64,000 nt of DNA from NCBI GenBank assembly GCA_037139495.1, contig JBAXGG010000001.1:3025-67024 (forward strand), given 5' to 3'. The notes beneath the pieces were generated by a model. That model was not told the DNA's origin, ran no database searches, and worked only from the letters and a program-made list of their open reading frames with translations. Source of the stretch: Candidatus Saccharimonadota bacterium. Its GTDB lineage: Bacteria > Patescibacteriota > Saccharimonadia > Saccharimonadales > JAUPVS01. This document shows, piece by piece, positions 12,073 through 59,243 of the stretch (its first letter is position 1; every line of letters begins with the position of its first letter). The translations under genes and the position numbers were made by a program.

Positions 12073-12537
12073 ATGCAGCCAACCAGTAAAATCAGTTTTT
12101 TAATCCAACACCTCGCCTTCTCACTTGGTCATACCAATGATCAGGTTTTACAGGAACAACTTGGTTTAGGGTTTTCACAATTTAAGCTGATGATGGTGTT
12201 ACAGAAGATGCCAAACATTCAGCAAAAACAAATTGCAAACACTCTTAATCAAACTGAAGCAAGTATCAGCCGGCAAATCAAATTGCTACACGAAAAAAGT
12301 CTGCTACAGACCACAATAAGCCCCAAGAATCGACGCGAGCACATCACTACTCTAACCTCGAAAGGTGTTCGTTATACTGAAGAAGCTCGACGAATATTGA
12401 ATAACTACTATCAGCCGATGTTTGATCAGATGAACGATAAAGACCAAGAGCAGTTATTACATCATCTTGGTACTTTGCATGACTTTATCTGTCACGATAA
12501 AAAAACCGACATGTGCCAGAAATACATTAAAGATTAA
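12073..12537 (+). CDS. MarR-family transcriptional regulator
   Basis: Winged-HTH region FSQFKLMMVLQKMPNIQQKQIANTLNQTEASISRQIKLLHEKSLL; located upstream of two MFS pumps. Confidence 0.7.
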   Translation: MQPTSKISFLIQHLAFSLGHTNDQVLQEQLGLGFSQFKLMMVLQKMPNIQQKQIANTLNQTEASISRQIKLLHEKSLLQTTISPKNRREHITTLTSKGVRYTEEARRILNNYYQPMFDQMNDKDQEQLLHHLGTLHDFICHDKKTDMCQKYIKD

Positions 12538-12551
12538 ACCCGGAGAAATGA

Positions 12552-13862
12552 ATGACCCTGACCAGCAAAAAGAACTTATCTAAAAAAGCCTTACCAATTG
12601 TAATTTTTACCGTCTTTCTTGATGTTTTAGGAGTCGGTATTTTGATTCCCATACTGCCCCAGCTAGTATTCAGAGTATTCATACCAGCCGGCTTTACTTA
12701 CGACCAAGCTCTCATTACTTTAGGCTGGCTAGTCGGTATCTATGCCTTGATGCAGTTCATTGCTACGCCTATACTTGGCCAATTGTCGGACCGTTACGGC
12801 CGGAAAAAGATCTTAGCTATTAGTCTGGGAGGGACGGCCATAGGCTATAGTTTGTTCGCTATAGCAATAATTACCAAAAACATTCCGTTACTATTTTTCT
12901 CGAGAGCGTTTGATGGCATCACTGGTGGAAATATTAGTGTAGCTAGAGCAGTGGTTGCCGACGTTACTAAGCCTAAAGATCGTACCAAAAACTTTGGATT
13001 AATCGGTGCTGCTTTTGGGATTGGGTTTGTAATGGGGCCATATATTGGTGCCCGCCTGGCCTCTCCAAGTGTTAGCTTCTTTGGGCTCTTTAATACGCCT
13101 CATTGGTTTAGCGCCTCAACGCCATTTTGGTTCGCGGCTATCCTGGCAGTAATCAATACGACGCTAGTTCTGTTTATTTTGCCGGAGACCCACAAGCACA
13201 TCAACCACAAACTCAAGATGGTTTGGACTAAGTCTTTGAGTAACATAAAACGAGCTGCTGCGTCACCTGGCCTTAGAATTGTATTTACTTCTGAGTTTTT
13301 GTTCTACGGCGGTTTTACATTCTTTACGACTTTCTTCCAGATCTTGCTAATCCAAAAACTGCATTTTACGCAAAGTAACGTTGGCGACTTCTTTGCTTAC
13401 ATTGGTATATGGATCGCCTTAACCCAAGGTGTATTAACGCCACTCCTGGCCAAGTACTTTAAAAACTACCAGATTCTGCGCTTTACCTTTTTTGGGATGG
13501 GCTTGGCTCTGTTTGCTCAGCTGCTGCCATCCAATGCGACCCAGTTGTTGTTTGCCGCTCCGTTAATTGCGATTTTCGTTGGGTTAACTATGGCAAACAC
13601 CTCTGCTTTAATTAGCTTGTCGGCTGGAGCTGAGATGCAGGGAGAAATTCTTGGTATCGATGCCAGTGTACAGGCGCTGGCAACTGCCATACCGGCCATA
13701 ATTAGCGGATACGTAGCAACAATGGGTGTTAATATGCCAGTAATTGTAGGTGCTGTTGTGGTGATGATCGGTGGACTAATATTTGTTGGCTTCTACCGAC
13801 CATCAAACCATCTTTTACATGAAAGCCCAGCCGAAGCTCTGGCAGAATCTAGAGCAGCCTAA
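12552..13862 (+). CDS. MFS transporter (12 TM), putative drug efflux
   Basis: MFS motif A-like GQLSDRYGRKK and 12 hydrophobic segments. Confidence 0.8.
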   Translation: MTLTSKKNLSKKALPIVIFTVFLDVLGVGILIPILPQLVFRVFIPAGFTYDQALITLGWLVGIYALMQFIATPILGQLSDRYGRKKILAISLGGTAIGYSLFAIAIITKNIPLLFFSRAFDGITGGNISVARAVVADVTKPKDRTKNFGLIGAAFGIGFVMGPYIGARLASPSVSFFGLFNTPHWFSASTPFWFAAILAVINTTLVLFILPETHKHINHKLKMVWTKSLSNIKRAAASPGLRIVFTSEFLFYGGFTFFTTFFQILLIQKLHFTQSNVGDFFAYIGIWIALTQGVLTPLLAKYFKNYQILRFTFFGMGLALFAQLLPSNATQLLFAAPLIAIFVGLTMANTSALISLSAGAEMQGEILGIDASVQALATAIPAIISGYVATMGVNMPVIVGAVVVMIGGLIFVGFYRPSNHLLHESPAEALAESRAA

Positions 13863-13863
13863 A

Positions 13864-15549
13864 ATGACTAAGAAGAAAGCTATCTACATCGAAGATATAC
13901 CTGAGAACGCTGCTGAATATCAAAAAGGTCTGCGTAAGTGGCTACCGATTGTAATCTTGAGCTTGGCGCTGATGATTATCATCGTTGATACCACAGTTCT
14001 TAATGTTTCATTAAAGGTAATTTCTCAAGATCTGCACACTAACTTGCAGGGATTGCAGTGGGTAATTACCGCCTACGCTCTAACGTTAGCAGCGTTTACG
14101 ATTACCGGTGGGCGATTGGGTGACTTATTTGGCCGTAAAAAGATGTTCATGATGGGTGCAGTAATCTTTGCCGGTGGTTCGTTTATTACTTCTATCAGCC
14201 ACTCGGTCGGCATTATGTTAATCGGTGAATCGATTATTGAGGGTATTGGTGCCGCCTTGATGATGCCAGCTACGGCTTCTTTGTTGGTAGCGAACTATAA
14301 AGGGCGAGACCGTGCTATTGCCTTTGGAGTTTGGGGTGGTATTGCTGGGGCGTCCTCGGCCATCGGTCCGATTATTGGTGGTTTTTTGACAACCAACTAC
14401 AGCTGGCGCTGGGCCTTCCGTATTAACATTGTAGTAGCCATAGTGCTGTTAATGGGTTCAGTATTTATCGCAGAGTCACGTGATACTCTGGAGAAGAAGG
14501 AGCTCGACTTTGTTGGCGTATTACTGTCGGCAACCGGTTTGTTCGCTTTTGTTTACGGTATTATTGAGGCTCCAACTTACGGTTGGTGGAAAGCTAGCCA
14601 GCCTTGGAGCATTTTAGGACACAGCTTTACGCTAGGCGGTTATTCGATTACCCCAATCGCCATGGGAATTGGTGTCATCTTGCTTGCCTTGTTTGCGCTT
14701 TGGGAAAACTATGCTGAGAAGCAAGGGCATACACCGCTAGTTTCTCTGAAGTTATTTGCCAATACCCAGTTTACATCGGGTGCGAGCACAGTTGCATTGA
14801 TGTCGCTAGGTATGACTGGTTTAATTTTTGCTGTGCCAGTTTTTCTACAATCAGTCCGTAACCTGGATTCTTTGCACACTGGTCTCGCCCTACTACCTTT
14901 GTCGCTGGCTATTTTGATCGTAGCACCTAGTTCGGCAATTCTCGCAAAACACTATAGCGCTAAGAGGATCATTCAAACTGGCTTACTTATAGCCGTAATT
15001 GCTAGTCAGTATCTGCGTTTATTGATTGGTCCTAATGCCACAGCCTGGAATTTGGCGCCTGGCCTGGCTTTGTTTGGCATTGGCCTTGGCCTAGTTTTTG
15101 CTCAAGCTAGCAATCTAACTTTGTCGGCTGTCTCGGTAGAACAATCCGGCGAGGCATCGGGTGTTAATAACACGATGCGCCAGGTTGGTTCGACCTTTGG
15201 CTCGGCTATTATTGGCGCCGTCGTTCTAACTACCCTCGCCAGTGGCTTAGTTAAGGGTGTAATGAATAGTCCAGATATCCCAACCAAGCTTAAACCACAA
15301 TTATCAGCATTTGTAGCCCGCGACGCTTCGGCCGCTAGCTTGGATGGAGTTAAACTAGATAGTAATACGGCCGCGAAATTGCCAGCCAACACGAGCAATG
15401 TATTAACTGATATAGCACATCAAGCCTCGGCAGATGCCAGCCGTAAGGCTATGTTCTACACAGGAGTATTCTTATTGGGTGCATTCACTGTTTCTTTTGC
15501 ACTCCCCAATACGCGTGACCTAGAAGGCAGGGCCGCCGGACGTCACTAG
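13864..15549 (+). CDS. MFS transporter, DHA2-like (14 TM), putative drug efflux
   Basis: GGRLGDLFGRKK motif and 14 hydrophobic segments. Start placed at MTKKK (ATG 13864) rather than the ORF-track start 13783, to avoid overlap with the upstream MFS gene. Confidence 0.75.
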   Translation: MTKKKAIYIEDIPENAAEYQKGLRKWLPIVILSLALMIIIVDTTVLNVSLKVISQDLHTNLQGLQWVITAYALTLAAFTITGGRLGDLFGRKKMFMMGAVIFAGGSFITSISHSVGIMLIGESIIEGIGAALMMPATASLLVANYKGRDRAIAFGVWGGIAGASSAIGPIIGGFLTTNYSWRWAFRINIVVAIVLLMGSVFIAESRDTLEKKELDFVGVLLSATGLFAFVYGIIEAPTYGWWKASQPWSILGHSFTLGGYSITPIAMGIGVILLALFALWENYAEKQGHTPLVSLKLFANTQFTSGASTVALMSLGMTGLIFAVPVFLQSVRNLDSLHTGLALLPLSLAILIVAPSSAILAKHYSAKRIIQTGLLIAVIASQYLRLLIGPNATAWNLAPGLALFGIGLGLVFAQASNLTLSAVSVEQSGEASGVNNTMRQVGSTFGSAIIGAVVLTTLASGLVKGVMNSPDIPTKLKPQLSAFVARDASAASLDGVKLDSNTAAKLPANTSNVLTDIAHQASADASRKAMFYTGVFLLGAFTVSFALPNTRDLEGRAAGRH

Positions 15550-16135: not shown

Positions 16136-16837
16136 CTAATCGCTAGAAGTCATGAAAACTACCAATCGTTCATCAAAATCGTTTGTGCCTTGAATAATTT
16201 TACCAGCGCAAGTCATTAAGTTTAGACCAGGTTTGCTCACTAAGACAGGGGATAAAACAGTATTCATATCGACTTGATTGGCTGGGTACGTTTTGGAGCT
16301 AACGACTTTATAGTTAAAAATTCTATCATCACCACGAGTGATGCTCACAGTGTCCCCAATTTTCAGCTTCCTCAAGTCATAAAAAAGACCTTTCGCTTGC
16401 CAACTCGATAAGTGGCCAAATATAAACATTGCCCCTCTTTGTCCCGGTTTAGCGCTGCCATTGTACCAGCCGGCGTCGTTAATATTACCTGGGTTGGTAA
16501 TCTGACCATCTTTGACGTCTAAACTAAATACACGAGCCTTATAGATATTAAGTTTTGTAACTGAAATATACTTTGGTAAATCTGGAGCTACTTTGTATTT
16601 TACAAGCATATCATGAGTTGGTTTATCTATAGATGGTGAAGTGGTTATGTGAACGTCTTTTGGTATTTTGGGCCTTGTTATGTTGGAATATATTATAAAG
16701 GAGCAAATGGTTAGTCCAGCAAAGCCCATGACTATCAAAAATATCGGCAACCAAGTTAGAGTTTTCTTTATTGCTTGGTGACCATTAACCCCCGAAATTT
16801 TTGACCACTCTTTTGTCGATTTTTTCTTATAAGCCAT
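16136..16837 (-). CDS. Sortase (class E/F-like transpeptidase), N-terminally membrane-anchored
   Basis: N-terminal TM helix, conserved His region (MFIFGHLSS), TLXTC catalytic motif (LNLMTCAG) and downstream Arg. AT-rich relative to its flanks. Confidence 0.8.
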   Translation of the reverse strand: MAYKKKSTKEWSKISGVNGHQAIKKTLTWLPIFLIVMGFAGLTICSFIIYSNITRPKIPKDVHITTSPSIDKPTHDMLVKYKVAPDLPKYISVTKLNIYKARVFSLDVKDGQITNPGNINDAGWYNGSAKPGQRGAMFIFGHLSSWQAKGLFYDLRKLKIGDTVSITRGDDRIFNYKVVSSKTYPANQVDMNTVLSPVLVSKPGLNLMTCAGKIIQGTNDFDERLVVFMTSSD

Positions 16838-16994
16838 TACTATATATTAACAAATTAGAATGGAACCACCCTAGTCTTAAGATAGAAAAATGAATTTTAG
16901 ATAGAGTCTTTACTTTATAAACAGGCTAAATAGCCATTATTAATACGTTTATGCTAAACTAATATTAAGTGTTCCAGCAAGAGGTAAAATAACT

Positions 16995-18401
16995 ATGAGA
17001 AAACAGCTTCGTTGGTTAATGGGAATAATTTCGGCAATTATTGCCTCTTCATTGTTGCTTTCGCCAACAATAGCACATGCTTTTACGCCGACTTTCAATG
17101 AATATTCCATACCCGGCGGGCCTGCTCAACCATTTGGAATAACAAGCGGCCCAGACGGTAATTTATGGTTTACCGAACGTTCTAAAGACTTTATTGGTAA
17201 AATTACGACCAGCGGAGTTGTCACCGAATATCCTGTTACCACAATCGGCACTGACAAGTTCAGTATCACGGCTGGGCCGGATAATAATCTTTGGTTTACT
17301 GAAGGTAGTGCCAATAAAATTGGTAAAATTACGACCAGCGGAGTTGTTACCGAATATTCCGTGCCAACAGCATCGGCTAACCCATTTCGGATAATTGCTA
17401 GTTCAGATGGTAACTTGTGGTTTACAGAGGAGTCAGCAAGCGGAATTGCGAAAATTACGACCAGCGGAGTTATCACCGAGTACGTTACCCCTACCAGCAA
17501 CTCAGGGCCAGATGGTATAACACTTGGACCAGATGGTAATATTTGGTTTGCGGAGCGTAATACCAATAATATTGCTAAAGTTACTCCAGCTGGAGTGATT
17601 ACTGAATATCACATCGGCAGTTCATTAGATACAAACGTAGTTGTAGCAGGACCAGATGGGAATATTTGGTTTGCGGAATCAACTGCCGGAAAAATTGGAA
17701 AAATGGCAACAGACGGTACAATACTCGCCGAGTTTTCCCTCCCACATACGTCAACCTTCTTCGAGATGGCTGCCGGACCGGAGGGGAACGTATGGTACAC
17801 CCAGCCAATGGCTACTGATGTAATCGGTCGGGTTACGCCGGAGGGTACAATTACCGAATTTACGCCACCAACGAGCAACTTCCAAGTAGCTGGTATAACC
17901 ACTGGACCAGATGGTAATATATGGTTTACCGAGCAATCCGAATCAAAGATAGGTAGTATGACTATTGCTCAAGCACCTGCTATTACTAATAAAACCGTTA
18001 CTGCTATAACCGGTAAACCGGACATCATTAACGTAGTTAGCGGTATCGGCAATAACCCAGGCCCAGCGACATTATCTATTGTGACTGCCCCCATCCATGG
18101 TAGCGCTACAGTGAATACGACAGATGGTACAATTACCTATACTTCGAATAGCGGTTATATTGGTAGTGATAGCTTAACGTATAGACTTTGCTCTGCTGAT
18201 GATATAGCGTCTTGTAAGCAAGCCGTACTTAGCTTCAGCGTTGTGTCTGATGCAGTAATAGCTCCACCTAAAACTGGTTTTGGAGCCTATACTGACAATA
18301 ACCGACAAAAACTGGCATTATACGGAAGTCTTACTACTATGTGTTTAATGACCTCCTACTTTGTGCGTCGTTACAACCGCAAGAATTCAGTGACTATTTA
18401 G
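16995..18401 (+). CDS. Secreted Vgb/streptogramin-lyase-like beta-propeller repeat protein with a C-terminal Ig-like domain and a sortase-type cell-wall sorting signal
   Basis: Signal peptide, then at least 7 tandem ~42-aa repeats of the form GK-ITTSGV-TEY-VP...GPDGNLWFTE (the Vgb-family blade repeat). C-terminus IAPPKTG + hydrophobic stretch + RRYNRKNS fits an LPXTG-like sorting signal. Confidence 0.7.
   Translation: MRKQLRWLMGIISAIIASSLLLSPTIAHAFTPTFNEYSIPGGPAQPFGITSGPDGNLWFTERSKDFIGKITTSGVVTEYPVTTIGTDKFSITAGPDNNLWFTEGSANKIGKITTSGVVTEYSVPTASANPFRIIASSDGNLWFTEESASGIAKITTSGVITEYVTPTSNSGPDGITLGPDGNIWFAERNTNNIAKVTPAGVITEYHIGSSLDTNVVVAGPDGNIWFAESTAGKIGKMATDGTILAEFSLPHTSTFFEMAAGPEGNVWYTQPMATDVIGRVTPEGTITEFTPPTSNFQVAGITTGPDGNIWFTEQSESKIGSMTIAQAPAITNKTVTAITGKPDIINVVSGIGNNPGPATLSIVTAPIHGSATVNTTDGTITYTSNSGYIGSDSLTYRLCSADDIASCKQAVLSFSVVSDAVIAPPKTGFGAYTDNNRQKLALYGSLTTMCLMTSYFVRRYNRKNSVTI
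17190..17500 (+). repeat. Intragenic tandem DNA repeats (about 123-bp period) with near-identical 30-40 bp cores
   Basis: ggtaaaattacgaccagcggagttgt(c/t)accgaatat recurs at about 17198, 17322 and 17443 with only 1-4 mismatches. Confidence 0.6.
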
Positions 18402-23961: not shown

Positions 23962-25275
23962 TTGACGTTAGCAGGTAGGACTCCTAAGCTTACAAGTAAG
24001 ATGTTAGAAAAAGCCAGAAAAATTGTTGTTCGGTTCACCACTGGCAAAAAACCACACGAATTGTCTTCCGATGACGTACAAGCGGCTCGTCAATATATTA
24101 TGCATTACTGGAAAAAGCTACAACGATATCATCCGCATGATGATGAAACGCTTTTTGGTTTGCCTAAACCATACTTGGTACCAGCTTACGAAGAAGGACA
24201 TAGTTTTGATTTCAACGAGCTTTACTACTGGGACAGCTATTTTATGGTCCAGGGTTTTTTAACTAAAGGCCACAAGGATTTAGTGACCGGTATTTTGGAG
24301 GATTTAATTTCACTCCAAAAACGCCTTAAGATTATACCTAACGCATCAAGGACATATTTAACAGGCCGTTCCCAGCCGCCTTTGCTAACTAGCTTTATTT
24401 TTGACGTTTATGAGGCCTACGATATGGGCGACAAGTGGTTGGCTGAAAACATCGCAATATCTAAGGAGGAATACCATGGTGTCTGGATGGGAGTCACTAA
24501 ACCAAATGAACGTAGAATATATCGGGGCCTGAGCCGCTACTACGATATTAATTACTTACACGACTTAGCCGAAGCCGAGAGCGCCTGGGATATGACACCA
24601 CGCTTTGGCCGTAAAGCTTTGAATTATTTACCTGTTGACCTAAATGCCTTGCTCTACAAGTACGAGACTGATTTTGCCCGCGCCGCTGAGATTGCCGGCA
24701 ACCACAAAGAGGCGCAAACTTGGCTACATAGCGCTAAGGTTCGCAAAAAAACCATGGACGAGCTTATGTGGAGCCCTTCCAGGGACTTTTACTATGACTA
24801 CGATTTTGTTCGTAAACGCCGCGGATCGGTATCTTCCCTAGCTGGTTTCTATCCGATGTGGGCCGGGATGGTCGATAAGGACCAGGCTGCAGCATTGGTT
24901 CGTATGCTAAAACGATTTGAGCACAAAGGTGGACTGTCTACTACCGACCAGCAGTTTAATCAGCGCCTACCGGGTCAGATTCCTGGTAACGGCAATACTC
25001 CAACACAGTGGGCCTACCCTAATGGCTGGGCGCCACTTCACTACATTATTATACAGGCTTTAGAGCGTTACGGTTACCACTCTGACGCCCGCAGGATTGC
25101 TTTTAAGTGGCTAAAAACTAACCTTGATTGGTTCGACAATGAAGAAATCTTTTTGGAAAAATATAACGTCGTTAACCCCGAAAAGCCTCCGATAAAGGGT
25201 CTATATCCATCACAAACTGGCTTTGGCTGGACAAATGCTATCTTCGAGCGACTCTGCCAAGATTACATCGACTGA
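23962..25275 (+). CDS. treA: Trehalase (glycoside hydrolase family 37)
   Basis: Matches both GH37 signatures: DFNELYYWDSYF (R-F-x-E-x-Y-x-W-D-x-Y type) and QWAYPNGWAP (Q-W-D-x-P-x-G-W-[PAS]-P type). The real start may be at MLEKARK (24001). Confidence 0.75.
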   Translation: MTLAGRTPKLTSKMLEKARKIVVRFTTGKKPHELSSDDVQAARQYIMHYWKKLQRYHPHDDETLFGLPKPYLVPAYEEGHSFDFNELYYWDSYFMVQGFLTKGHKDLVTGILEDLISLQKRLKIIPNASRTYLTGRSQPPLLTSFIFDVYEAYDMGDKWLAENIAISKEEYHGVWMGVTKPNERRIYRGLSRYYDINYLHDLAEAESAWDMTPRFGRKALNYLPVDLNALLYKYETDFARAAEIAGNHKEAQTWLHSAKVRKKTMDELMWSPSRDFYYDYDFVRKRRGSVSSLAGFYPMWAGMVDKDQAAALVRMLKRFEHKGGLSTTDQQFNQRLPGQIPGNGNTPTQWAYPNGWAPLHYIIIQALERYGYHSDARRIAFKWLKTNLDWFDNEEIFLEKYNVVNPEKPPIKGLYPSQTGFGWTNAIFERLCQDYID

Positions 25276-26006
25276 AAAGATGTGATGGGCATTATTTTGT
25301 CCTGAAGATTGACTATTGATGTATCGAAAGCATACTTTTCTTGATCAAGTAACATTATTGTTGCTACGCCAGAGGCAACTTTCAGTAAACCCGGACCATC
25401 TAAAACACTAACTCCGCAAGCTGTAACTTCTCGGTTATCGCTGATCGCATCAAATGAAACAGCAAACAAATCGAATGTGCTTAAGAAACCTGGTTCATGA
25501 TCTAAACTGTAACTAGGTTTGTTTACTATTCCAGCAGTATTTAATGGATTTAAAAGTCCCCTTACGCCAGATAATTTTGCATCTTTCCTGATTTTGGAGG
25601 CTGCTCTATCAAAAATGTTGTCAGACATATTGGCATGACTAATGCCAATTAAATTGAATAAGGAGATGCCGACGGCGCGTGCTACCATTACTTCATCAAG
25701 CTGTTTTGATCGGCGAGTTTCTTCGGTCATAGCATAGGCTTTAGCGCCAATGTATTGAATGACTTTAGTATAGTAAGTTGTAAAATCCAAATCTGGTGCA
25801 AAATTTGATTTCACAGATTCCACTTTTTCGCTAAGCAAGTGAGTGTAGAATCCTTTATGAATTCTAAATAGCTCTGCTTCCGAATAAGATAGAATGATAC
25901 TAGTCTTAGACTTTGCAACTTTTTCTGTTTGACGTAATTGCCTTGCCTCCGGTGAGCGAGTGAAATTCATAAAAAACATTATATCACTAATGGTCAGTAA
26001 AGTCAA
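25263..26006 (-). CDS. Hypothetical protein (orphan, AT-rich, opposite strand to all neighbours)
   Basis: 247-aa ORF with no recognisable motifs; visibly lower GC than the flanking trehalase and metG genes; 3' end overlaps the trehalase stop by 13 nt. Confidence 0.45.
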   Translation of the reverse strand: MTLLTISDIMFFMNFTRSPEARQLRQTEKVAKSKTSIILSYSEAELFRIHKGFYTHLLSEKVESVKSNFAPDLDFTTYYTKVIQYIGAKAYAMTEETRRSKQLDEVMVARAVGISLFNLIGISHANMSDNIFDRAASKIRKDAKLSGVRGLLNPLNTAGIVNKPSYSLDHEPGFLSTFDLFAVSFDAISDNREVTACGVSVLDGPGLLKVASGVATIMLLDQEKYAFDTSIVNLQDKIMPITSFQSM

Positions 26007-28286: not shown

Positions 28287-28619
28287 ATGCTCAATATACT
28301 GGACAGCCAAGAACAATCAATGCGCCGCCTGGCTAACCCCGAGGTTATTAACGAACGCGGTGATCACCGCAAGACAGCTGCCGATAATATACGAAGTGTT
28401 ATTGAGTGGCAATTTGGTGGTGAACTTAAGCAATATGGTGACCCAGTATCTGAAAGTGCCGGACTCATCCCAGTTGAGAAATTCAGTCAGATTGGTGACT
28501 TGGCTACACAGACCGGTTTGAGCAATATTGATTTGTCCCGAAAACTAGCTGCTCAGGCCCATGATGAGCAGGGTGTCCAAGATTTCCTAGGGGAAATAAG
28601 TGTTCCTGAAACTGTTTAA
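28287..28619 (+). CDS. Hypothetical acidic small protein
   Basis: 110-aa ORF with no motifs; overlaps the next ORF by 20 nt. Confidence 0.4.
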   Translation: MLNILDSQEQSMRRLANPEVINERGDHRKTAADNIRSVIEWQFGGELKQYGDPVSESAGLIPVEKFSQIGDLATQTGLSNIDLSRKLAAQAHDEQGVQDFLGEISVPETV

Positions 28620-28965
28620 GTCACTTAGTGACCAAAAAGAAATAGACCGCCGCGCTGAACAGTACCGCAACTTAATTAGACGAGAAGCCAAAATCGGTGG
28701 AAAATTGTTTGGCCCCATACCTAAAGGCCATAGACGAGAATTTTTTTGTTTAAACGAGCACACCTGGGTATGGTATGAAGAATGGACTGATCCTAGCGGA
28801 CACAGCCAATCTAAGACCACTCGTTATGATGTACGTCCAAAAGGAGTCGTCAAGGTTCAAGACGGACACCCTAGCCAATACATTGATTTAAACGAAGCTC
28901 GTAATCTCTATCAAGCCGTCGAACTCTATAACCAACGTATTGATGCTGAGTATGATCTACCTTGA
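28600..28965 (+). CDS. Hypothetical small protein
   Basis: 121-aa ORF, Trp/His-rich central segment (HTWVWYEEWTDPSGH), no recognised family. Confidence 0.4.
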   Translation: MFLKLFKSLSDQKEIDRRAEQYRNLIRREAKIGGKLFGPIPKGHRREFFCLNEHTWVWYEEWTDPSGHSQSKTTRYDVRPKGVVKVQDGHPSQYIDLNEARNLYQAVELYNQRIDAEYDLP

Positions 28966-31487: not shown

Positions 31488-33374
31488 ATGAATGCTCAAG
31501 AAATCCGAAAAGCTTATTTGGACTTTTTCAAGGGACAAAAGCACGAATTAATCCAGCTGGCTCAATTAGTGCCCCAAAATGACCCAACTACACTTTTTAC
31601 CGGTTCTGGTATGCAGCCACTCATCCCATATTTATTGGGCGAAAAGCACCCTAGCGGCGTTCGTCTTGTTAATAGCCAAACTTGTTTGCGCGCCCAAGAT
31701 ATTGAAGAGGTCGGCGATAATCGTCACACAACCTTCTTTGAGATGCTCGGTAACTGGAGTCTGGGCGATTATTTTAAGAAGGAGCAGATTGCCTGGTTTT
31801 TTGAGTTTTTGGTAGACAAGGTCGGTCTGGACCCTCAGAAAATCTACGTTACCTGTTTTATTGGTAGTAAAGAACATAATATCCCTCGTGATGACGAAGC
31901 CGCTGCTATTTGGCAAAAACTGTTTAAGTCTAAAGGTATCGATGCTAAGATTGCCGAGATTGGTAGTCAAGCTAATGGCGACAAGCGCGGTATTAAAGAA
32001 GGGGAACGCATCTTCTTTTACGATGATGGCGAAAACTGGTGGAGCCGTGCTGGTGGCCTCGATAAAACTCCGATTGGTGACCCTTGCGGACCAGATAGCG
32101 AAGTTTTCTACAATTTTGGCCCCCAGAATCACAACCCTTCTTTTGGACATGCCCACCCAGCCAGTGATTCAGGCCAGTTTATGGAAATTGGCAACCAAGT
32201 TTTTATGCAGTATTTGCGTACTGATAAAGGTTTTGAGGAACTGCCTAAACCTAACGTTGATTTTGGCGGTGGCTTGGAACGTATCGCCGCTGCCGCTATC
32301 GATAGCCCAGATGTTTTTAAAATTAGCATAATGTGGCCAATTATCGATCAGCTAGAAAAACTTTCTGGCAAAAAGTACGGCAATCACCAAGCTAGCATGC
32401 GGGTTATTGCTGATCACTTGCGAGCGGCCACCTTCCTAGCCGTTGATGGAATCGTTCCCTCCAACAAAACCCAAGGTTATGTTATGCGTCGCTTGTTGCG
32501 TCGCGCCATCCGCTTTGCATTTGAACTTGGCATCGAACAAAACTTCTTGCAAGACGTAGCCCCAGTTATTACGGATCTGTACCATCATGATTACCCAGAG
32601 GTGGCCGAACAGCGAGACAAGGTTGTCGATATTTTGGTTCGGGAAGAAAAGATTTTCCGACAGACACTGCGCAAAGGGCTGCATGAGTTCAACAAAATGG
32701 CCGGCAAAGAACTAACTGGCGAGACTCTATTTAAACTTTATGACACATATGGTTTCCCAACAGAGCTTACACATGAAGAAGCCTTTAAACAAGATTTGCC
32801 AGTTGCTAAAACCGCTCAAGATGATTTCGAGAAGCTCATGCAGGAACAGCGTGAACGCTCACAAACGGCCAGTAAGGGTACCTTTAAAGGTGGTCTTGGT
32901 GGTCAAACCCTGCAACACAAAAAATATCATACCGCTACGCACCTTATGTACCAGGCCTTAAGAAACGTTCTGGGCGACCACGTTATTCAGCGCGGTTCTA
33001 ACATTACCGAAGAACGCCTGCGTTTTGACTTTAGCCACCACGAAAAAGTGACTCCTGAGCAAATCAAAGAAGTCGAAAAAATAGTAAACGAACAGATTGG
33101 TAACGATCTTAAAGTCAGTTTCGAGGAATATCCTACAAAAGTTGCTCGAGAAGAAAAAGGTGCTTTGGGCCAATTTGGTGATCGTTACGGGGAGCGGGTC
33201 AAAGTTTATACGATGATTGCTGACGGCGCTAAAAAGCCATTTAGTTTTGAAATATGCGGCGGACCCCATGTTGACCATACTCTGCAATTATTTGAAGACG
33301 GCAAGAAGTTTAAGATACTAAAAGAAGAAGCCAGCTCTGCCGGGGTCCGAAGAATCAAGGCCGTATTAGCGTAA
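31488..33374 (+). CDS. alaS: Alanyl-tRNA synthetase, compact form lacking the C-terminal C-Ala domain
   Basis: FTGSGMQ and HTTFFEMLGNWSLGDYFK class II motifs; editing-domain HxxxH (HTATHLMYQ) and CGGPHV motifs. It ends right after the editing domain at 628 aa. Confidence 0.85.
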   Translation: MNAQEIRKAYLDFFKGQKHELIQLAQLVPQNDPTTLFTGSGMQPLIPYLLGEKHPSGVRLVNSQTCLRAQDIEEVGDNRHTTFFEMLGNWSLGDYFKKEQIAWFFEFLVDKVGLDPQKIYVTCFIGSKEHNIPRDDEAAAIWQKLFKSKGIDAKIAEIGSQANGDKRGIKEGERIFFYDDGENWWSRAGGLDKTPIGDPCGPDSEVFYNFGPQNHNPSFGHAHPASDSGQFMEIGNQVFMQYLRTDKGFEELPKPNVDFGGGLERIAAAAIDSPDVFKISIMWPIIDQLEKLSGKKYGNHQASMRVIADHLRAATFLAVDGIVPSNKTQGYVMRRLLRRAIRFAFELGIEQNFLQDVAPVITDLYHHDYPEVAEQRDKVVDILVREEKIFRQTLRKGLHEFNKMAGKELTGETLFKLYDTYGFPTELTHEEAFKQDLPVAKTAQDDFEKLMQEQRERSQTASKGTFKGGLGGQTLQHKKYHTATHLMYQALRNVLGDHVIQRGSNITEERLRFDFSHHEKVTPEQIKEVEKIVNEQIGNDLKVSFEEYPTKVAREEKGALGQFGDRYGERVKVYTMIADGAKKPFSFEICGGPHVDHTLQLFEDGKKFKILKEEASSAGVRRIKAVLA

Positions 33375-33465
33375 AACTCAGCTGGTTCACAGACAGCCTG
33401 TTTATAACTATAGGTAGTTTGAGCGACTTACTTCATAGAGCCAGTCTAAGATGTTAAAATAAAAG

Positions 33466-34770
33466 GTGATTATGCTTGGAAAACTAAAGCGTTCTAATGG
33501 CGCATATAAAAAAACCGGTGAACAATATATTGTTGGCCTGGATATTGGCACCGAATACGTAAAAGCCTTAATTGGCGTCCTGAAAGACGATAAGATCGAA
33601 GTTATCGGTGTTGGCCGTACTCATCAGGAACTAAACGACATGCAGGCCGGGGCGATTGCCGACATCACAGGAGTGGTGCGCAACTGCAACGAAGCTTTAA
33701 ACATTGCCGAAAAACAAGCTGGCACAACTGTTCGTACTGGTGTTATTGGTATAGCCGGTGAGCTAGTTAAGGGTACAACTACCACTGTCCGAGCCACCCG
33801 AAAAAACCCGACCAAAGCTCTGGACGTACCGGAGGTAGAAAAGATTATTGGTCTAGTTCAGAAGCGAGCCGAAGAGCGTGCTAAACAGCAGTTGGCCTGG
33901 GAATTGGGCGGTAAAGAAGTTGAAGTTCGTTTGGTTAACAGTGCCTTGGTCGGTATCGAAATCGATGGTTACAAGGTTACTAACCCAATTGGCTTTCAGG
34001 GTAAGGACGTAGTTGTGCAGCTCTATACGGCCTTCGCTCCATTAATTCATATTGGCGCCCTAGAAAAAACTGCTCAGGAGCTAGACCTAGATTTATTAGC
34101 TGTAGCCGCCGAACCTTTTGCCGTCTCCCGGGCCGTTATCGGTAATGATCCAAATGCCAGCATGAGTGCTATCTTGATGGATGTCGGTGGCGGTACTACC
34201 GATATTGCGGTCGTTAACGACGGCGGTGTCCAGGGAACCAAGATGTTTGGAATCGGCGGTCGCGCCTATACTAGAGCTGTCGAGAAGGAACTGGATATAT
34301 CCTTTGCCCAAGCCGAAGAATTAAAAATCGGTTTACAATCTAACAAGACTCCTCGGACAGAAGTACCCTCTATCGAGAAAGCTCTAAAAAAGACTGCTGA
34401 CGTCTGGATTGACGGCGTCGAACTTGCCCTATCGGAGTTTGACAAGTTAGATCATCTACCAAATCGAGTTTTATTGTGTGGTGGCGGGTCATCTCTTGAT
34501 GCCTTGGTTGATACGCTAAATTCTAGCCAGTGGTATGGCCAGCTTCCGTTTACCCGCAAGCCAGTTGTACAATATATACGTCCCGAACAAGTTATGGGTA
34601 TCGTCGACAAGACTGGCGACGTTACCGATCATACCTTTGTAACGGCCATGGGATTGTTGCGAGTTGGCGCTGACACTGTGCAGCAACAGGATGCTCCAGC
34701 GAGCACAACCAAAACAAGCTCTCCCAAAGGAAGTTTTAAAGAACGATTAGACAGGATGTTGCGCGTATGA
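33466..34770 (+). CDS. ftsA: Cell division protein FtsA (actin-family ATPase)
   Basis: VGLDIGTEYVKALIG phosphate-1, DVGGGTTDIAVV phosphate-2, SFAQAEELKIG, and a C-terminal amphipathic helix GSFKERLDRMLRV resembling the E. coli FtsA membrane-targeting helix. Confidence 0.7.
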   Translation: MIMLGKLKRSNGAYKKTGEQYIVGLDIGTEYVKALIGVLKDDKIEVIGVGRTHQELNDMQAGAIADITGVVRNCNEALNIAEKQAGTTVRTGVIGIAGELVKGTTTTVRATRKNPTKALDVPEVEKIIGLVQKRAEERAKQQLAWELGGKEVEVRLVNSALVGIEIDGYKVTNPIGFQGKDVVVQLYTAFAPLIHIGALEKTAQELDLDLLAVAAEPFAVSRAVIGNDPNASMSAILMDVGGGTTDIAVVNDGGVQGTKMFGIGGRAYTRAVEKELDISFAQAEELKIGLQSNKTPRTEVPSIEKALKKTADVWIDGVELALSEFDKLDHLPNRVLLCGGGSSLDALVDTLNSSQWYGQLPFTRKPVVQYIRPEQVMGIVDKTGDVTDHTFVTAMGLLRVGADTVQQQDAPASTTKTSSPKGSFKERLDRMLRV

Positions 34771-36422
34771 CCGAAGCTCAAAAAGATACTATCTACATCG
34801 ATGTTGACGACGAAATCACTGGCATTATCGAAAAGGTCAAAGACAGCCCGCACAAAATTGTTGCTTTGGTGCTACCTAAACGCGCCACAGTTTTGCAGAG
34901 CATCGTCAACATGAAGCTGCTTAATCGCAGTGCTAAAACTGCTAAAAAGAGCCTGGTATTAATTACATCGGAAGCTGGCCTGCTACCTTTAGCTGGAGCG
35001 GTCGGGGTCCATGTTGCTAAAAACCTCCAATCCAAGCCTGCCATTCCAGCCGGGCCTGCTACCGATGAGATCCCTGAGTCACTGATAAATGAAGAAGAAA
35101 TTGATGCCGATGAGGATGACCCAGAAATTGACGACAGTAAGCCAATCGGCGATCTAGCCGGTGTTGCTGATGAAGAAGAAACTATCGATCTAAACGACGA
35201 TGAGCCCGCTACAGCAGATAAAAAAGCTGACAAACCAGCCAAAGACAAAAAACTCAAAGTTCCAAACTTCGAACGCTTCCGTAAATGGCTAATAATTGGC
35301 GGGATTGCTCTCCTAGTTTTAATTGTAGGCGGTTACTTTGCCATGGTGCGTATGCCCAAGGCTAACATCGTTATTACCACTGATTCAACCGATACAACTA
35401 CGAATGTTGCTTTTACGGCTAACACTAGTACCAAAACTTACGACGAAGCCGCAAAGGTTATTCCGGCCGAAATGCCATCTGTCAAAAAAACCGACAGCCA
35501 ATCGGCGCCCGCAACCGGGCAGAAGAATAACGGGACCAAAGCAACTGGAACAGTGACTATTACAGCTCAAAAATGTGGGATTATTAGCGTTAATCCTCCG
35601 GCCTCTATTGCAGCAGGGACGGGAGTTAGCTCTGGGGGTCAGACTTATATTACCCAGAAAACGACCGTCTTCACTACTCTAGAACCAAAAGACAGCTGTA
35701 TTAACTACAAGTCAACCCCTACTGATATAACAGCGCAGAACGGCGGGGTGGCCTACAACGTAAGCGGCGCTACGTTTACGGTTAGCGGTCGTTCCGATAT
35801 TAGTAGTGCGACTGGTAGTGCTAACGGCGGTACCGACAACATGGTAAAAGTAGTCTCTCAAGCCGACGTTGATGCCGCCAAAGCCAAGCTGACTACTCAA
35901 GCTCAATCCGATGCCGCCAAGACGGAACTTACTAATACACTTAAAAAAGACGGCATGTTCATTATTACCTCTAGCTTAGCTGTTGATGGACCGACAATTA
36001 CAACGGCTCCTAACGTCGGTGACCCAGCCGATAATGTAACGGTAACGTCGACTGCTACTTATACGCTGTTGGGCGTTAATCAGGATGACCTAAACAAGCT
36101 AATTACCGCCCAAGCCAAAGGTCAGATCGATCAGGGTAAACAGACCGTCCAGGATACCGGGTTAAGTACAGCAACGTTTACAGTCCAGGGCAAGGATAAC
36201 CCGCAGGTTGTGGCAACCACTACAGTGACAATCGGTCCGAACCTCGATACCAATGCTATCAAAAAAGAAATCGCCGGCAAAAAGAAGGCTGAAACAACTG
36301 ATATTATCCAGAGTCGTCCTTCGATTAAATCTGTCACTGTTAATTACAGCCCATTCTGGGTCAATAAAACTCCTAAAAATGCCAATAAGGTGACAATTAC
36401 ATTCAATAAAGCGGGCAAGTAG
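34767..36422 (+). CDS. Hypothetical bitopic membrane protein, translationally coupled to ftsA
   Basis: ATGA start/stop overlap with ftsA. About 120-aa cytoplasmic N-domain, acidic linker, one TM helix (IIGGIALLVLIVGGYFAMV), then a ~350-aa Thr/Gly/Ser-rich, probably beta-rich, extracytoplasmic domain. No family recognised. Confidence 0.55.
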   Translation: MTEAQKDTIYIDVDDEITGIIEKVKDSPHKIVALVLPKRATVLQSIVNMKLLNRSAKTAKKSLVLITSEAGLLPLAGAVGVHVAKNLQSKPAIPAGPATDEIPESLINEEEIDADEDDPEIDDSKPIGDLAGVADEEETIDLNDDEPATADKKADKPAKDKKLKVPNFERFRKWLIIGGIALLVLIVGGYFAMVRMPKANIVITTDSTDTTTNVAFTANTSTKTYDEAAKVIPAEMPSVKKTDSQSAPATGQKNNGTKATGTVTITAQKCGIISVNPPASIAAGTGVSSGGQTYITQKTTVFTTLEPKDSCINYKSTPTDITAQNGGVAYNVSGATFTVSGRSDISSATGSANGGTDNMVKVVSQADVDAAKAKLTTQAQSDAAKTELTNTLKKDGMFIITSSLAVDGPTITTAPNVGDPADNVTVTSTATYTLLGVNQDDLNKLITAQAKGQIDQGKQTVQDTGLSTATFTVQGKDNPQVVATTTVTIGPNLDTNAIKKEIAGKKKAETTDIIQSRPSIKSVTVNYSPFWVNKTPKNANKVTITFNKAGK

Positions 36423-36424
36423 TA

Positions 36425-36856
36425 ATGCAGTCCTCTCAGAACCCTAATGCACGCATTGTAGCGTTGGACGTTGGTAAAAAACGGATTGGTGTGGCAAGCG
36501 CGAATGTCATTGCTCGTCTTGCCAGCCCATTAACCACCCTAGACGTAAGCGATAATATCATTGAAGATATTAAGCAGCTACTGGCTCGAGAGACTGCACA
36601 AGCATTAGTAATTGGCCTACCGCGTAATCTGCAGGGCGAAGACACCGACCAAACTAGGACGGTTCGTCAGTTCGCCGCTGGACTAGAAAAACAAATAAGT
36701 ATCCCGATTTACTGGCAGGACGAGGCTCTAACTTCTCACTTATCAAAAGAACGTCTTAAAGTATCACAAAAAACTTACCAAAAAGGTCAAGTTGACGCCC
36801 TGGCAGCCACCTATATTTTAGAAGATTATTTGGTATCAATGCCGGATTCCAAATAA
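36425..36856 (+). CDS. ruvX: Putative pre-16S rRNA nuclease / Holliday-junction-resolvase-like YqgF
   Basis: N-terminal ALDVGKKRIGVA motif; 143 aa. Confidence 0.85.
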   Translation: MQSSQNPNARIVALDVGKKRIGVASANVIARLASPLTTLDVSDNIIEDIKQLLARETAQALVIGLPRNLQGEDTDQTRTVRQFAAGLEKQISIPIYWQDEALTSHLSKERLKVSQKTYQKGQVDALAATYILEDYLVSMPDSK

Positions 36857-37905
36857 TGGTAAAAAATAATCATTACCGAACACGAATAAGACGGTGGCCG
36901 TTAATTACCTTTTTATCGATATTTGTCGGGTTGGCTGTAGTTATCGGTGGAGTCTGGATGGTGCGATACTACTATTACCCTAACCTACTACCTTTTAGCA
37001 GTAGCCAGACTGCGGTAACCGTTACGATCCCAACCGGCTCTTCGGTTAGTCAGATTGCCGGCATACTACATCAAAATAAGTTAATCAGAGATTCTAGAGT
37101 TTTCACTCAATATGTACGTACTCAAAACGTTCAGGATAAGTTACAGGCGGGAACTTACTCCCTACGACCGAGTGATAGTGTGCAAAAAATTACTAAGATT
37201 TTAACCGGTGGAGATATCCAGAAGAACTTGTTTACAATTCTCCCTGGCCAAAGGCTCGACCAAATTAGAAGCTCGATGATTAATGCTGGATTCCCGGCTG
37301 CTCAGGTTGATCAAGCAATGAATTCGGCACTATATAAAAATCACCCAATTCTGGCTTATAAGCAGGCCGAAGCTAGCCTAGAGGGCTACCTGTATCCTAA
37401 TTCCTACCATCGGATTGCCGAAACAACACCACAACAAATTATTAAGCAGTCATTGGATGAGATGCAAAAACAACTAACTCCAGCAATTCGCGATGCTTTT
37501 GTTGCTCAAGGCTTAACTGCTCATCAGGGGGTTACTTTGGCGTCGGTAGTGGAAATGGAGGTTTCTAAGCCCATTGATCGCCCGATTGTCGCCCAGGTGT
37601 TCCTTTCCCGTCTACGATTAAGTAAAAATCTTGAGTCGGATGCTATAACAGCCTATGGTGATATTCTGGCTGGGCATAGCCCCAGCACCACATTCGATAC
37701 CCCGTACAACGTATATATCCACCCCGGCTTGCCAATAGGGCCGATTAGTAATGTTAGCGAGGATGCCTTGCAAGCAGTTGCGCATCCGGCCGCTACTAAT
37801 TGGTTATATTTTGTATCTGGTGACGATGGCACTACTCACTTTTCTAGCAACCTACAAGATCACCAGGCACTGACTAAACAGTACTGTAAAAAACTCTGTC
37901 AGTAG
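36856..37905 (+). CDS. mltG: Endolytic murein transglycosylase MltG (YceG family)
   Basis: N-terminal TM, YceG-like body, and the GLPIGPISN motif near the C-terminus (analogous to GLPPTPI); the ruvX-mltG adjacency is conserved. Confidence 0.8.
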   Translation: MVKNNHYRTRIRRWPLITFLSIFVGLAVVIGGVWMVRYYYYPNLLPFSSSQTAVTVTIPTGSSVSQIAGILHQNKLIRDSRVFTQYVRTQNVQDKLQAGTYSLRPSDSVQKITKILTGGDIQKNLFTILPGQRLDQIRSSMINAGFPAAQVDQAMNSALYKNHPILAYKQAEASLEGYLYPNSYHRIAETTPQQIIKQSLDEMQKQLTPAIRDAFVAQGLTAHQGVTLASVVEMEVSKPIDRPIVAQVFLSRLRLSKNLESDAITAYGDILAGHSPSTTFDTPYNVYIHPGLPIGPISNVSEDALQAVAHPAATNWLYFVSGDDGTTHFSSNLQDHQALTKQYCKKLCQ

Positions 37906-37950
37906 AACTTCAAAAATGGCCAAAAGGGCCGATTTTTGGTATAATCTGGG

Positions 37951-42222: not shown

Positions 42223-43005
42223 GTGTATATGAATCGTCAGCGCAACTCGTTTAGTCAAAATGGTGTAGGAATGGAAATATGTTTTTCTGAGCAAACTACT
42301 ACGCCAGAAGAATTTGGCCGTAGTGGCTTATATATTTCTTCTCCCCCCGAAGTTCGAATAATTCGGCAGGTTAGTATTCATCCTGACGATAATGAAAGAT
42401 TACGTAATGCAGTAGACTATTTAGGTCAAAAAAACTACGGAAAAGGTAAGGCTACTGCTATTGGATCCCTAGCATGTACCTATGTATCTGCCGAAGAAAT
42501 GGCTCGAATGCTAGAAAATAAGTACCCTAAAATATATCAAAATCGTCGCAAGATAACTCAAATGCAACGGCGCATGGCAAAAGACTATAAACAATTCGTT
42601 CAAAATTCAGGTAGATCCGTAGAGGAAGCAGTAATGTCGGGTTTTAGAGTACAGATTGACGGTCACGATGACGAGCAAACAGATGTATTCCCGTTAATTG
42701 ATGAAATGAAATGGTCGGCCGGAGATTTTTTTATTTCTGATTATGAAAAATATAGCCACAACACAATCGGACTAGACCTTTCAGAGAACTTAACTTTGAT
42801 GGCTGAAATGGATGAAACAGTTGCATACTTAAGGGATGAGGGACTTAACATAAACTCCATAGACAGGACCCGTGAACCACACCTGAGTATATTTACAACT
42901 TTCGGCAGTCTGGGGAACACTAGTTTGCACGCTATGAGCCATCCCAACCCTGTTACTTTGGAGCTTCCAAAAATGTGGGTTAATTCTAGCGGGATCACTA
43001 TTTAA
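42223..43005 (+). CDS. Hypothetical protein, no recognisable family (AT-rich cassette gene 1)
   Basis: 260-aa ORF with lower GC than its flanks; only weak H-x-[ST]-x dyads (SHNTI, PHLSI); its own promoter. Confidence 0.45.
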   Translation: MYMNRQRNSFSQNGVGMEICFSEQTTTPEEFGRSGLYISSPPEVRIIRQVSIHPDDNERLRNAVDYLGQKNYGKGKATAIGSLACTYVSAEEMARMLENKYPKIYQNRRKITQMQRRMAKDYKQFVQNSGRSVEEAVMSGFRVQIDGHDDEQTDVFPLIDEMKWSAGDFFISDYEKYSHNTIGLDLSENLTLMAEMDETVAYLRDEGLNINSIDRTREPHLSIFTTFGSLGNTSLHAMSHPNPVTLELPKMWVNSSGITI

Positions 43006-43048
43006 TACAACAATATGCTATAATAGCAAGCGGAGTAAACAGTAAATT

Positions 43049-43855
43049 ATGCCAGTACGTGATGAGAAGGATTTCAGTTACATTGATATGAGCCGAGCCG
43101 TTGAAGGCCCTGGCATAATTAAGTTTTTAGGTGCAGTCGATTACCATAGCAGAGAAATATTTGGTAATGATCAATCAGGCATAGTTGTCATCCCTGGCCA
43201 TCTGGACGAGGATGCTAGGATTAACAGTAGTAACGAGGATTACCTATCATCCGAATTAGAAATCAAAACGGTGGGTAGCCCGAGGTTTAAAGTATACGAT
43301 GCAGAGGATATAAGGTTTACGTTGCTCCATCGCCGCCAACCGAAGGAGCTGAATAAGACGAGCAGGTTATTGTGGGCAGGTCGTAGGACAACTAGAATAC
43401 AAGAGCAAACATACCATCCAATTGATGTAGATACAGATCAGGCCCCGCTATTTAAGACTAGTCCACTCTATGAGGCTTTGGTCAGGATTGGTCTTCAGTA
43501 TGATGTGCCTAGCCAGGATAACGTACCGATTAAATTTTCGGCAATTACTTTGAACCCAGATTCTGATTTTGGCGATAAAGGCATTGAGCTGGCATTGATT
43601 CCGTCCCCTGATGACAAAGTTACTCGTATGTTGGTTGATCAGATTCAACTATGCTATACAGCTCTAAAGCAAAAATCAAAATGGGCTGTATATCCGAATA
43701 ACGGGCCATTACCCTTAACTGTGCCATTTGCACGTTTGCCACGAGATGTTACTGAATCAGAGATAAAACAGTTTATAAAAGTTATGGACGAAAACTTACT
43801 TCCAGTCCGTGGCGTATTGAGTGTGATTAATCCTCGTCCCACCATTCATAACTAG
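43049..43855 (+). CDS. Hypothetical protein, no recognisable family (AT-rich cassette gene 2)
   Basis: 268-aa ORF with lower GC than its flanks; no motifs recognised. Confidence 0.45.
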   Translation: MPVRDEKDFSYIDMSRAVEGPGIIKFLGAVDYHSREIFGNDQSGIVVIPGHLDEDARINSSNEDYLSSELEIKTVGSPRFKVYDAEDIRFTLLHRRQPKELNKTSRLLWAGRRTTRIQEQTYHPIDVDTDQAPLFKTSPLYEALVRIGLQYDVPSQDNVPIKFSAITLNPDSDFGDKGIELALIPSPDDKVTRMLVDQIQLCYTALKQKSKWAVYPNNGPLPLTVPFARLPRDVTESEIKQFIKVMDENLLPVRGVLSVINPRPTIHN

Positions 43856-53775: not shown

Positions 53776-54147
53776 ATGAACAATGCAACTGGTCGGTTTC
53801 TATTACGTTGGTTTGTCTGTGGATTGGGCCTGTGGATTGCTGCCTTGATTTTGGGGGGAAGTCGTTTAACTGTACAAAGCAGTCTGCTGGTCTTAATTGT
53901 GTCCGGCCTCCTGCTTGCGATTCTAAATACCGTAATTAAACCTCTAGTGGTAATCCTATCTTTACCGGCAATATTGTTTAGCCTGGGGCTATTTATGATC
54001 GTTATTAACGGCTTAATGGTTTTGTTGGTGAGTAAGCTCTACGCTTCGCTTCAGGTAGAAAACTTTGGCGCCGCGATGTTGGCCGGAATGATCATTGGTT
54101 TTGTTAACTATTTAGTGACAACCATCCTCGATAGACGGAGCAGCTAA
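53776..54147 (+). CDS. DUF360 / phage-holin-4-like small membrane protein
   Basis: 123 aa with 4 TM helices, a pattern typical of the YvlD/DUF360 family. Confidence 0.5.
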   Translation: MNNATGRFLLRWFVCGLGLWIAALILGGSRLTVQSSLLVLIVSGLLLAILNTVIKPLVVILSLPAILFSLGLFMIVINGLMVLLVSKLYASLQVENFGAAMLAGMIIGFVNYLVTTILDRRSS

Positions 54148-59235: not shown

Positions 59236-59243
59236 TTTAAATA

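Follow-up and report, generated by a model that had tools for sequence, protein, structure and literature searches.

The window analysed here, 64,000 nucleotides of contig JBAXGG010000001.1 from a Candidatus Saccharimonadota bacterium (GenBank assembly GCA_037139495.1), contains two adjoining genes that code for an actin-like ATPase of the FtsA/PilM family and, directly after it, a bitopic membrane protein, which we call X (NCBI WCJ24_00185, an exact protein match). The sequence confirms the two open reading frames (ORFs; Table 1) and the ATGA overlap given for them in an initial annotation of this DNA: their junction reads ...CGC GTA TGA CC..., with the ATG of X overlapping the TGA of the ATPase gene. 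Likewise, Pfam and NCBIfam matches confirm alaS, ruvX and mltG as flanking genes. The same annotation regarded the ATPase as the divisome FtsA and X as its partner, standing in the place of ftsZ in a pair inserted into an alaS-ruvX-mltG array. Our analysis supports the idea of a partnership and assigns the ATPase to an old third paralogous lineage of the FtsA/PilM branch, which is neither the divisome FtsA nor the PilM of type IV pili.

The ATPase (hereafter the paralog) has more than 8000 homologs and matches PF14450 with 54 bits. It scores 112.7 bits against TIGR01174, the FtsA equivalog of NCBIfam, under the cut-off of 175.85, and shows no match at E<=0.01 to PF02491 (SHS2_FTSA), a domain that is also missing from the precomputed domains of 120 of its orthologs. 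The PilM models fare no better, with 21.8 bits for PF11104 (PilM_2; cut-off 27) and 37.1 bits for TIGR01175 (cut-off 133). In structural comparisons the AlphaFold2 (AF2) model of the paralog, with a predicted local distance difference test score (pLDDT) of 75.8, recovers FtsA (7q6i, E 4.5e-26) as its best Foldseek match and PilM (5eoy, E 1.5e-21) as its second-best, each over about 400 aligned columns; the PilM-PilN structures 2ych and 5eou are also among the fold matches. Despite the absence of a PF02491 match, the alignment to FtsA still takes in the 1C-like region. A profile built from 30 orthologs gives a concordant ranking against the PDB (FtsA E 1e-17, PilM E 1e-10), and 30 orthologs carry the nucleotide-binding motifs DIGT, DVGGGTTD and CGGGS unchanged. 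The C-terminal amphipathic helix noticed earlier on this protein is borne out: for the last 12 residues, SFKERLDRMLRV, the hydrophobic moment is 0.66, at the 99th percentile of the protein's 12-mers, AF2 places a helix at residues 424-433 after a disordered linker, and residues D429, M431, L432 and R433 are conserved among orthologs. We regard this helix as a putative membrane-targeting sequence.

As a query for canonical FtsA we used the 90-residue C-terminus of FtsA from the cultivated Saccharibacterium Southlakia epibionticum, taken from a knock-out construct in PMC10633639, and scanned metagenome contigs with it. Among the first 40 loci inspected, almost all with room downstream carry an ORF of about 400 aa with a tubulin signature roughly 50 nt after ftsA. 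TIGR01174 gives 322-343 bits for three genuine Saccharibacterial FtsA proteins, as against 112.7 for the paralog, to which these three are only 20-23% identical. On A2, a profile of paralog orthologs, canonical FtsA proteins reach 26-86 bits (the best 70-86), and the orthologs from outside Saccharibacteria long enough to score, four in number, reach 385-473; in the search for homologs of the paralog, close orthologs had at least 674 bits. The same separation is apparent in S. epibionticum ML1, where ftsA (SEML1_0174) is directly followed by ftsZ (SEML1_0175), both being essential (Wang et al. 2023, PMC10633639 Table S1), and where the true PilM-PilN pair of the type IV pilus lies at a separate locus, SEML1_0104/0105 (PMC10633639). 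A third locus of this genome is syntenic with the window, reading mnmA, alaS, SEML1_0656, SEML1_0655, ruvX, mltG, a LysM protein and obg; SEML1_0656 (1284 bp) is annotated as a "pilus assembly protein PilM" and SEML1_0655 (1671 bp) as a "baseplate J/gp47 family protein" (PMC10633639). Judging by their synteny, by the size of the genes and by where their domains begin and end, we treat these two as the presumed orthologs of the paralog and X. The single SEDS protein of strain ML1, SEML1_0273, and a POTRA FtsQ-like protein, SEML1_0275, are encoded in a dcw-type cluster apart from ftsA-ftsZ (PMC10633639 Tables S1/S2).

Because a genuine and different FtsA thus exists in Saccharibacteria, the ATPase of the window is a third paralog, and the name ftsA is not borne out for it. 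The initial annotation had considered that the protein might class with PilM or MreB instead; it is indeed not a canonical FtsA, but neither is it a type IV pilus PilM. Nor can X be said to stand in place of ftsZ, as genuine ftsA-ftsZ pairs lie separately from this locus both in the metagenomic loci and in S. epibionticum. We found no FtsZ signature, canonical ftsA or pil gene in the 64-kb window, and the presence of ftsZ in this metagenome-assembled genome (MAG) is inferred from its lineage. Databases already list these genes, but the names they give disagree: NCBI gives the paralog's orthologs only as "FtsA domain-containing protein", and JGI calls them "cell division protein FtsA". Meheust 2019 merged FtsA and PilM into one family.

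We then considered how far the two genes are kept together. A scan of species-representative genomes produced 543 loci, of which we examined the best 80, almost all labelled Saccharibacteria or unclassified, and one more. In these 81 Saccharibacteria loci the order alaS, paralog, X, ruvX, mltG, LysM-CHAP, obg, exoI is kept as far as the contigs reach, so the arrangement is not an insertion in this genome, as had been supposed, but one common to the Saccharibacteria sampled. The paralog lies directly 5' of X in all 79 loci that reach upstream, where 63 have a gap of no more than 10 nt and 29 the 4-nt overlap (gap -4 nt). For a search outside Saccharibacteria we used an artificial profile of the N-terminal domain of X, built from sequence patterns of the Candidate Phyla Radiation (CPR), and re-checked its matches with profiles made from real sequences, A1 for X and A2 for the paralog. 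The artificial profile matched 37 real short or fragmentary proteins (lowest E 3e-29), among them one labelled Patescibacteria and one labelled Moranbacteria. In all six contexts that were fetched, one of which is named Moranbacteria, an ortholog of the paralog stands immediately 5' of the X-like gene. The X-like N-domains score 42-72 bits on A1 in all six, and in the two loci whose contigs hold an intact ectodomain the latter scores 158-186 bits. The window protein shares 44-49% identity with the accompanying orthologs of the paralog, which end in a similar amphipathic helix (e.g. VLSNMLRRAVKMMQN) and among which there are matches to PF11104. The gene downstream of the pair is infA rather than ruvX in both loci that show one, the other four stopping short; the conserved unit is therefore the pair itself, and the ruvX-mltG context seems to be specific to Saccharibacteria. 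Taken together, the 79 informative Saccharibacteria loci and the six from other CPR lineages support the original idea that X acts with the actin-like protein. In four of the six other CPR loci the X-like gene is split between the part coding for the N-domain and linker and that coding for the transmembrane (TM) helix and ectodomain, by frameshifts in L162 (7140-8260), L163 (7965-9905) and L165 (1463-3356) and by an in-frame TAA at 791-793 in L167 (302-2344). Real splits are possible, but the likely cause is a search whose output was confined to short ORFs of draft assemblies.

Homologs of protein X number more than 3000, and a profile search recovered 10,963 representative clusters at E<=1e-3. 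It is matched by no Pfam or NCBIfam model, in agreement with the earlier statement that it belongs to no recognisable sequence family, and a PDB profile search with the full-length protein was equally negative. Its AF2 model (pLDDT 81.7) and sequence support the bitopic architecture with one TM helix and an acidic linker that had been described for it. The linker has a pLDDT below 50 at residues 101-164, contains 21% Asp and 15.5% Glu, and has a net charge of -22. A basic stretch, KKADKPAKDKKLKVPNFERFR, precedes the TM helix and thereby indicates an N-in topology. The external domain had been characterised as Thr/Gly/Ser-rich; threonine is indeed abundant (17.5%), but glycine (7.3%) and serine (7.6%) are not notably so, and with a pLDDT mostly above 90 the region is folded and not of low complexity.

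Within X, conservation is highest in the cytoplasmic N-domain, with a mean identity of 81% as against 49% for the ectodomain, the corresponding value for the paralog being about 71-75%; the domain is also found in other CPR proteins. Its order of secondary structure elements in our model (Table 1) may be compared with small alpha/beta domains of the SpoIIAA/STAS kind, and DPAM assigned the N-domain of SEML1_0655 as SpoIIAA-like with a score of 0.888 (PMC10633639 Table S2). In X itself this domain, taken as residues 6-95 for the comparison with STAS, has no sequence similarity to STAS families, its profile finds no sequence match in the PDB, Foldseek of the whole model returns no STAS match, and no gene for a partner kinase or anti-sigma factor lies nearby.

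Structure prediction, recommended in the initial annotation together with hidden Markov model (HMM) searches, yields for the ectodomain a remote likeness to phage baseplate J and no adhesin fold. In BFVD, Foldseek finds six matches with E<=1e-3 that span 350-405 columns, the best of them having E 2.8e-6 (405 columns). Two of the six carry names, one as a Baseplate J-like protein and the other as a virion structural protein of a cyanophage; the match at rank 8, just past this threshold, is named Baseplate. The TM-scores are low (0.14-0.18). Against the PDB there is none at E<=1e-3, and the weak matches include phage baseplate chains and 4eo0. The external part of SEML1_0655 was parsed by DPAM into three nested domains, namely an aminomethyltransferase-type beta-barrel, a G3P-like domain and a T4 gp6 domain III (PMC10633639 Table S2). 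In its nested, beta-rich, multi-domain build the ectodomain is remotely like the baseplate J/T4 gp6/P2 gpJ proteins (PF04865), from which X differs in lacking a significant sequence-family match, in its membrane anchor and cytoplasmic domain, and in its chromosomal housekeeping context free of tail genes. PF04865 does not match X, and of 38 homologs only one matches it (E 0.013), the same one that alone matches phrog_6, a baseplate wedge family (E 7.6e-10). A tblastn search with the ectodomain found no match in 50,697 phage genomes. Based on this negative result, the single-member HMM matches and the weak fold matches, we take the "baseplate J" label to denote a remote structural likeness of the ectodomain and not membership in the family.

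Around the pair, alaS is of a short form, to which NF002436 aligns end to end, while the alignment to the 847-position TIGR00344 ends near position 431. The stop codon of X and the ATG of ruvX are 2 nt apart, base 36856 is common to ruvX and mltG, and 3' of mltG there follow a LysM-CHAP hydrolase, obg and an exonuclease I gene, the last named after a homologous gene in another of the loci compared (L001). A promoter-like site at 33432-33472 (TTCATA, 17 nt, TAAAAT, TG extension) ends 5-11 nt 5' of the candidate start codons of the paralog, so its leader would be very short or absent, and a terminator-like hairpin follows mltG at 37917-37931; the promoter and terminator scan as a whole did not exceed shuffle expectation.

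Table 1. Features of the paralog-X pair and its flanking genes in the window.
Feature	Coordinates	Strand	Basis and remarks
alaS	31488-33374		short 628-aa form; NF002436 640 bits; upstream of paralog
FtsA/PilM-family actin-like ATPase paralog	33466..34770	+	434 aa from GTG 33466 (ORF call); ATG 33472 (432 aa) is the likelier start because homologs start MLDKxK
C-terminal amphipathic helix of paralog, putative membrane-targeting sequence	34732..34767	+	SFKERLDRMLRV
Protein X, bitopic membrane protein	34767..36422	+	551 aa; ATG start; ATGA-coupled to paralog
X cytoplasmic N-domain, residues 1-95	34767..35051	+	beta-alpha-beta-alpha-beta-alpha-beta fold (AF2)
X disordered acidic linker, then basic juxtamembrane stretch, residues 96-166	35052..35264	+	pLDDT and composition
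X single TM helix, residues 174-195	35286..35351	+	Kyte-Doolittle 19-residue maximum 2.49; AF2 helix 168-195
X Thr-rich folded ectodomain, residues 197-551	35355..36419	+	nested beta-rich domains (AF2)
ruvX	36425-36856	+	PF03652; abuts X, co-oriented
mltG	36856-37905	+	PF02618, TIGR00247

PilM and PilN form the alignment subcomplex of type IV pili, in which the cytoplasmic end of the partner binds the ATPase, and GspL of type II secretion is the fused form of such a pair. FtsA in turn recruits bitopic proteins through their cytoplasmic ends (PMC7613929). In light of these systems we consider it somewhat better than an even bet that the paralog and X, a gene pair kept throughout the Saccharibacteria sampled and occurring in at least a few further CPR lineages, work as a two-gene module, a transmembrane pair comparable to PilM-PilN or FtsA-FtsN. 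The C-terminal amphipathic helix of the paralog, which retains its nucleotide-binding motifs, would hold the ATPase on the inner face of the membrane, where it would bind the cytoplasmic domain of X. Its nucleotide-dependent state or oligomerisation might then position or cluster the ectodomains of X in the wall-facing space, and there the ectodomains could scaffold some structure or process of the envelope. The pair would share a transcript with ruvX and mltG in Saccharibacteria. The slow evolution of the cytoplasmic domain of X, on par with that of the ATPase and in contrast to that of the ectodomain, fits a constrained cytoplasmic interface. What the data show is the paralogy, the pairing, the topology, the modelled folds of the domains, the pattern of conservation and the importance of the presumed X ortholog for fitness. 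By the same analogies, a physical interaction, oligomerisation and an envelope role are what we infer for the pair, and a division or envelope role is possible.

The genome-wide transposon sequencing (Tn-seq) of S. epibionticum, in which the pair figures in a table and is not taken up in the text, bears on this proposal from both sides. SEML1_0655 is class II essential (NE/ES/ES, with reads falling from 373 to 34 to 24) and the same source marks each of the two families as a core family enriched in Patescibacteria (PMC10633639 Table S1). Several points weigh against the proposal. SEML1_0656 tolerates insertions (NE, NE, GD) while SEML1_0655 does not (PMC10633639), which is not what an obligate complex would predict, and insertions in the latter may also have polar effects on ruvX, an essential gene that overlaps it. 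The transfer of these data to the window passes through an orthology that rests on synteny, sizes and domain boundaries and not on sequence comparison. The sample from outside Saccharibacteria is small (six loci), with several genes fragmented and most taxa not named. The SpoIIAA-like label of the N-domain is a published automated assignment that was not reproduced here, and the baseplate J likeness is weak, for the reasons given above.

The alternative that the ATPase is the cell's own divisome FtsA, uncoupled from ftsZ and recruiting X as a lineage-specific component of the divisome, is in our judgement very unlikely. FtsA is its best family and fold match, down to the 1C-type region, its C-terminal helix is of the FtsA type, the JGI name agrees, and the neighbouring mltG and LysM-CHAP genes act on the cell wall. 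Yet the protein falls short of the equivalog, lacks PF02491 and does not adjoin ftsZ; X has neither the SPOR nor the POTRA domain of FtsN and FtsQ/DivIB; and the genuine ftsA-ftsZ of Saccharibacteria is essential in S. epibionticum, whereas the presumed counterpart of the paralog is not. This refutation is limited in that the canonical pair was not located within the 64 kb available from this MAG. Closer to our proposal, and a specific version of it instead of an exclusive rival, would be an accessory system of division or morphogenesis beside FtsA-FtsZ, remodelling the wall for polar budding or substituting for MreB, which we hold as a tentative possibility. Given the polar budding of S. epibionticum and the lack of an annotated MreB in its genome, an envelope-morphogenesis role is attractive, though speculative, and it would suit an operon with mltG beside LysM-CHAP and an FtsA-like fold with a membrane helix. 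It is less easily reconciled with the loss of the ruvX-mltG adjacency in the two other CPR loci with a downstream gene, and mltG is non-essential in S. epibionticum (PMC10633639). We also posit, as an unlikely but more far-reaching variant, a Patescibacterial transenvelope cytoskeletal device in which a third actin of the FtsA/PilM type on the inner face of the membrane would pattern, via the N-domain of X, an external lattice or ring made of a baseplate-wedge-like fold co-opted by the cell; if true, such a device would organise polar budding or the host-contact zone in these epibionts.

A pilus-related role or a purely coincidental adjacency of the two genes we regard as less likely than a paired envelope function. 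A divergent PilM-PilN-like alignment subcomplex, for type IV pili or another surface filament, is rather improbable: in place of the N-terminal peptide of about 10 residues that PilN offers to its ATPase, X has a folded domain of 95 aa; its ectodomain of about 355 aa is baseplate-J-like; and no SPOR, POTRA or PilN domain was matched by Pfam or NCBIfam in X or in 38 homologs. To our knowledge PilM has no amphipathic tail such as the paralog carries. The PilM cut-offs given above, the absence of pil genes from the window and the bona fide PilM-PilN pair elsewhere in S. epibionticum point the same way. These outweigh for us the considerations that an ATPase gene immediately followed by a coupled one for a bitopic, N-in partner mirrors pilM-pilN, that PilM is the second fold match, that SEML1_0656 bears a PilM annotation and other CPR orthologs match PilM_2, that X was described as having a G3P pilus-binding-like subdomain (the published DPAM assignment, with the weak 4eo0 match here), and that type IV pilus genes are enriched in CPR genomes (PMC6744442). 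Some genomes annotate X as a "baseplate J/gp47 family protein", one homolog matches PF04865 and phrog_6, and the BFVD fold matches are phage structural and baseplate proteins, from which X might be read as a remnant of a prophage or tail-like particle adjoining an actin-like gene by chance. We know of no baseplate J protein with a TM anchor or a cytoplasmic domain. With no phage genes seen near X in the window, no counterpart among the phage genomes searched by tblastn, and housekeeping neighbours that stay the same through 81 species-level loci, in a family reported as part of the CPR core, this reading is scarcely credible, and we rejected it. A defence system was considered as well and rejected, as PADLOC gives a 17-bit partial match for the ATPase and none for X.

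Much of the diversity of bacteria belongs to the CPR, whose specific families mostly have no assigned function. Against this background the pair is of interest as being kept in every Saccharibacteria locus sampled, with a presumed X ortholog that is class II essential in the one Saccharibacterium for which we found a genome-wide Tn-seq screen. The logic of an actin-like ATPase plus a bitopic partner is familiar; unusual are the folded adaptor domain on the cytoplasmic side, which neither Pfam nor the PDB contains, and the baseplate-like domain outside. Names such as FtsA, PilM and baseplate J mislead inventories of division and pilus genes in the CPR. In the literature on baseplate J in Patescibacteria or CPR and on actin-like proteins in Saccharibacteria, our search turned up no paper that describes the pair; as S. 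epibionticum is transformable, the question is directly testable.

Elsewhere in the window, ORFs of 110-316 aa with no Pfam match at E<=1e-5 occur at 252-1861, 25263-26006, 28287-28965, 42223-43855 and 60128-61078. A DUF348-G5 protein, an architecture known from RpfB-like cell-wall proteins of Gram-positive bacteria, is encoded at 9954-11186, a small membrane protein of PF04020 (mycobacterial 4-TMS holin family) at 53776-54147, and a LemA and M48 peptidase gene pair at 58672-60122. A MarR-family regulator followed by two tandem transporters of the major facilitator superfamily (MFS), whose ORFs overlap by about 80 nt, occupies 12073-15549. Finally, at 16136-18401 a sortase gene on the minus strand adjoins one for a 468-aa beta-propeller of the Vgb-lyase family with a Big_9 Ig-like domain, and the two may constitute a sortase and its surface-protein substrate.

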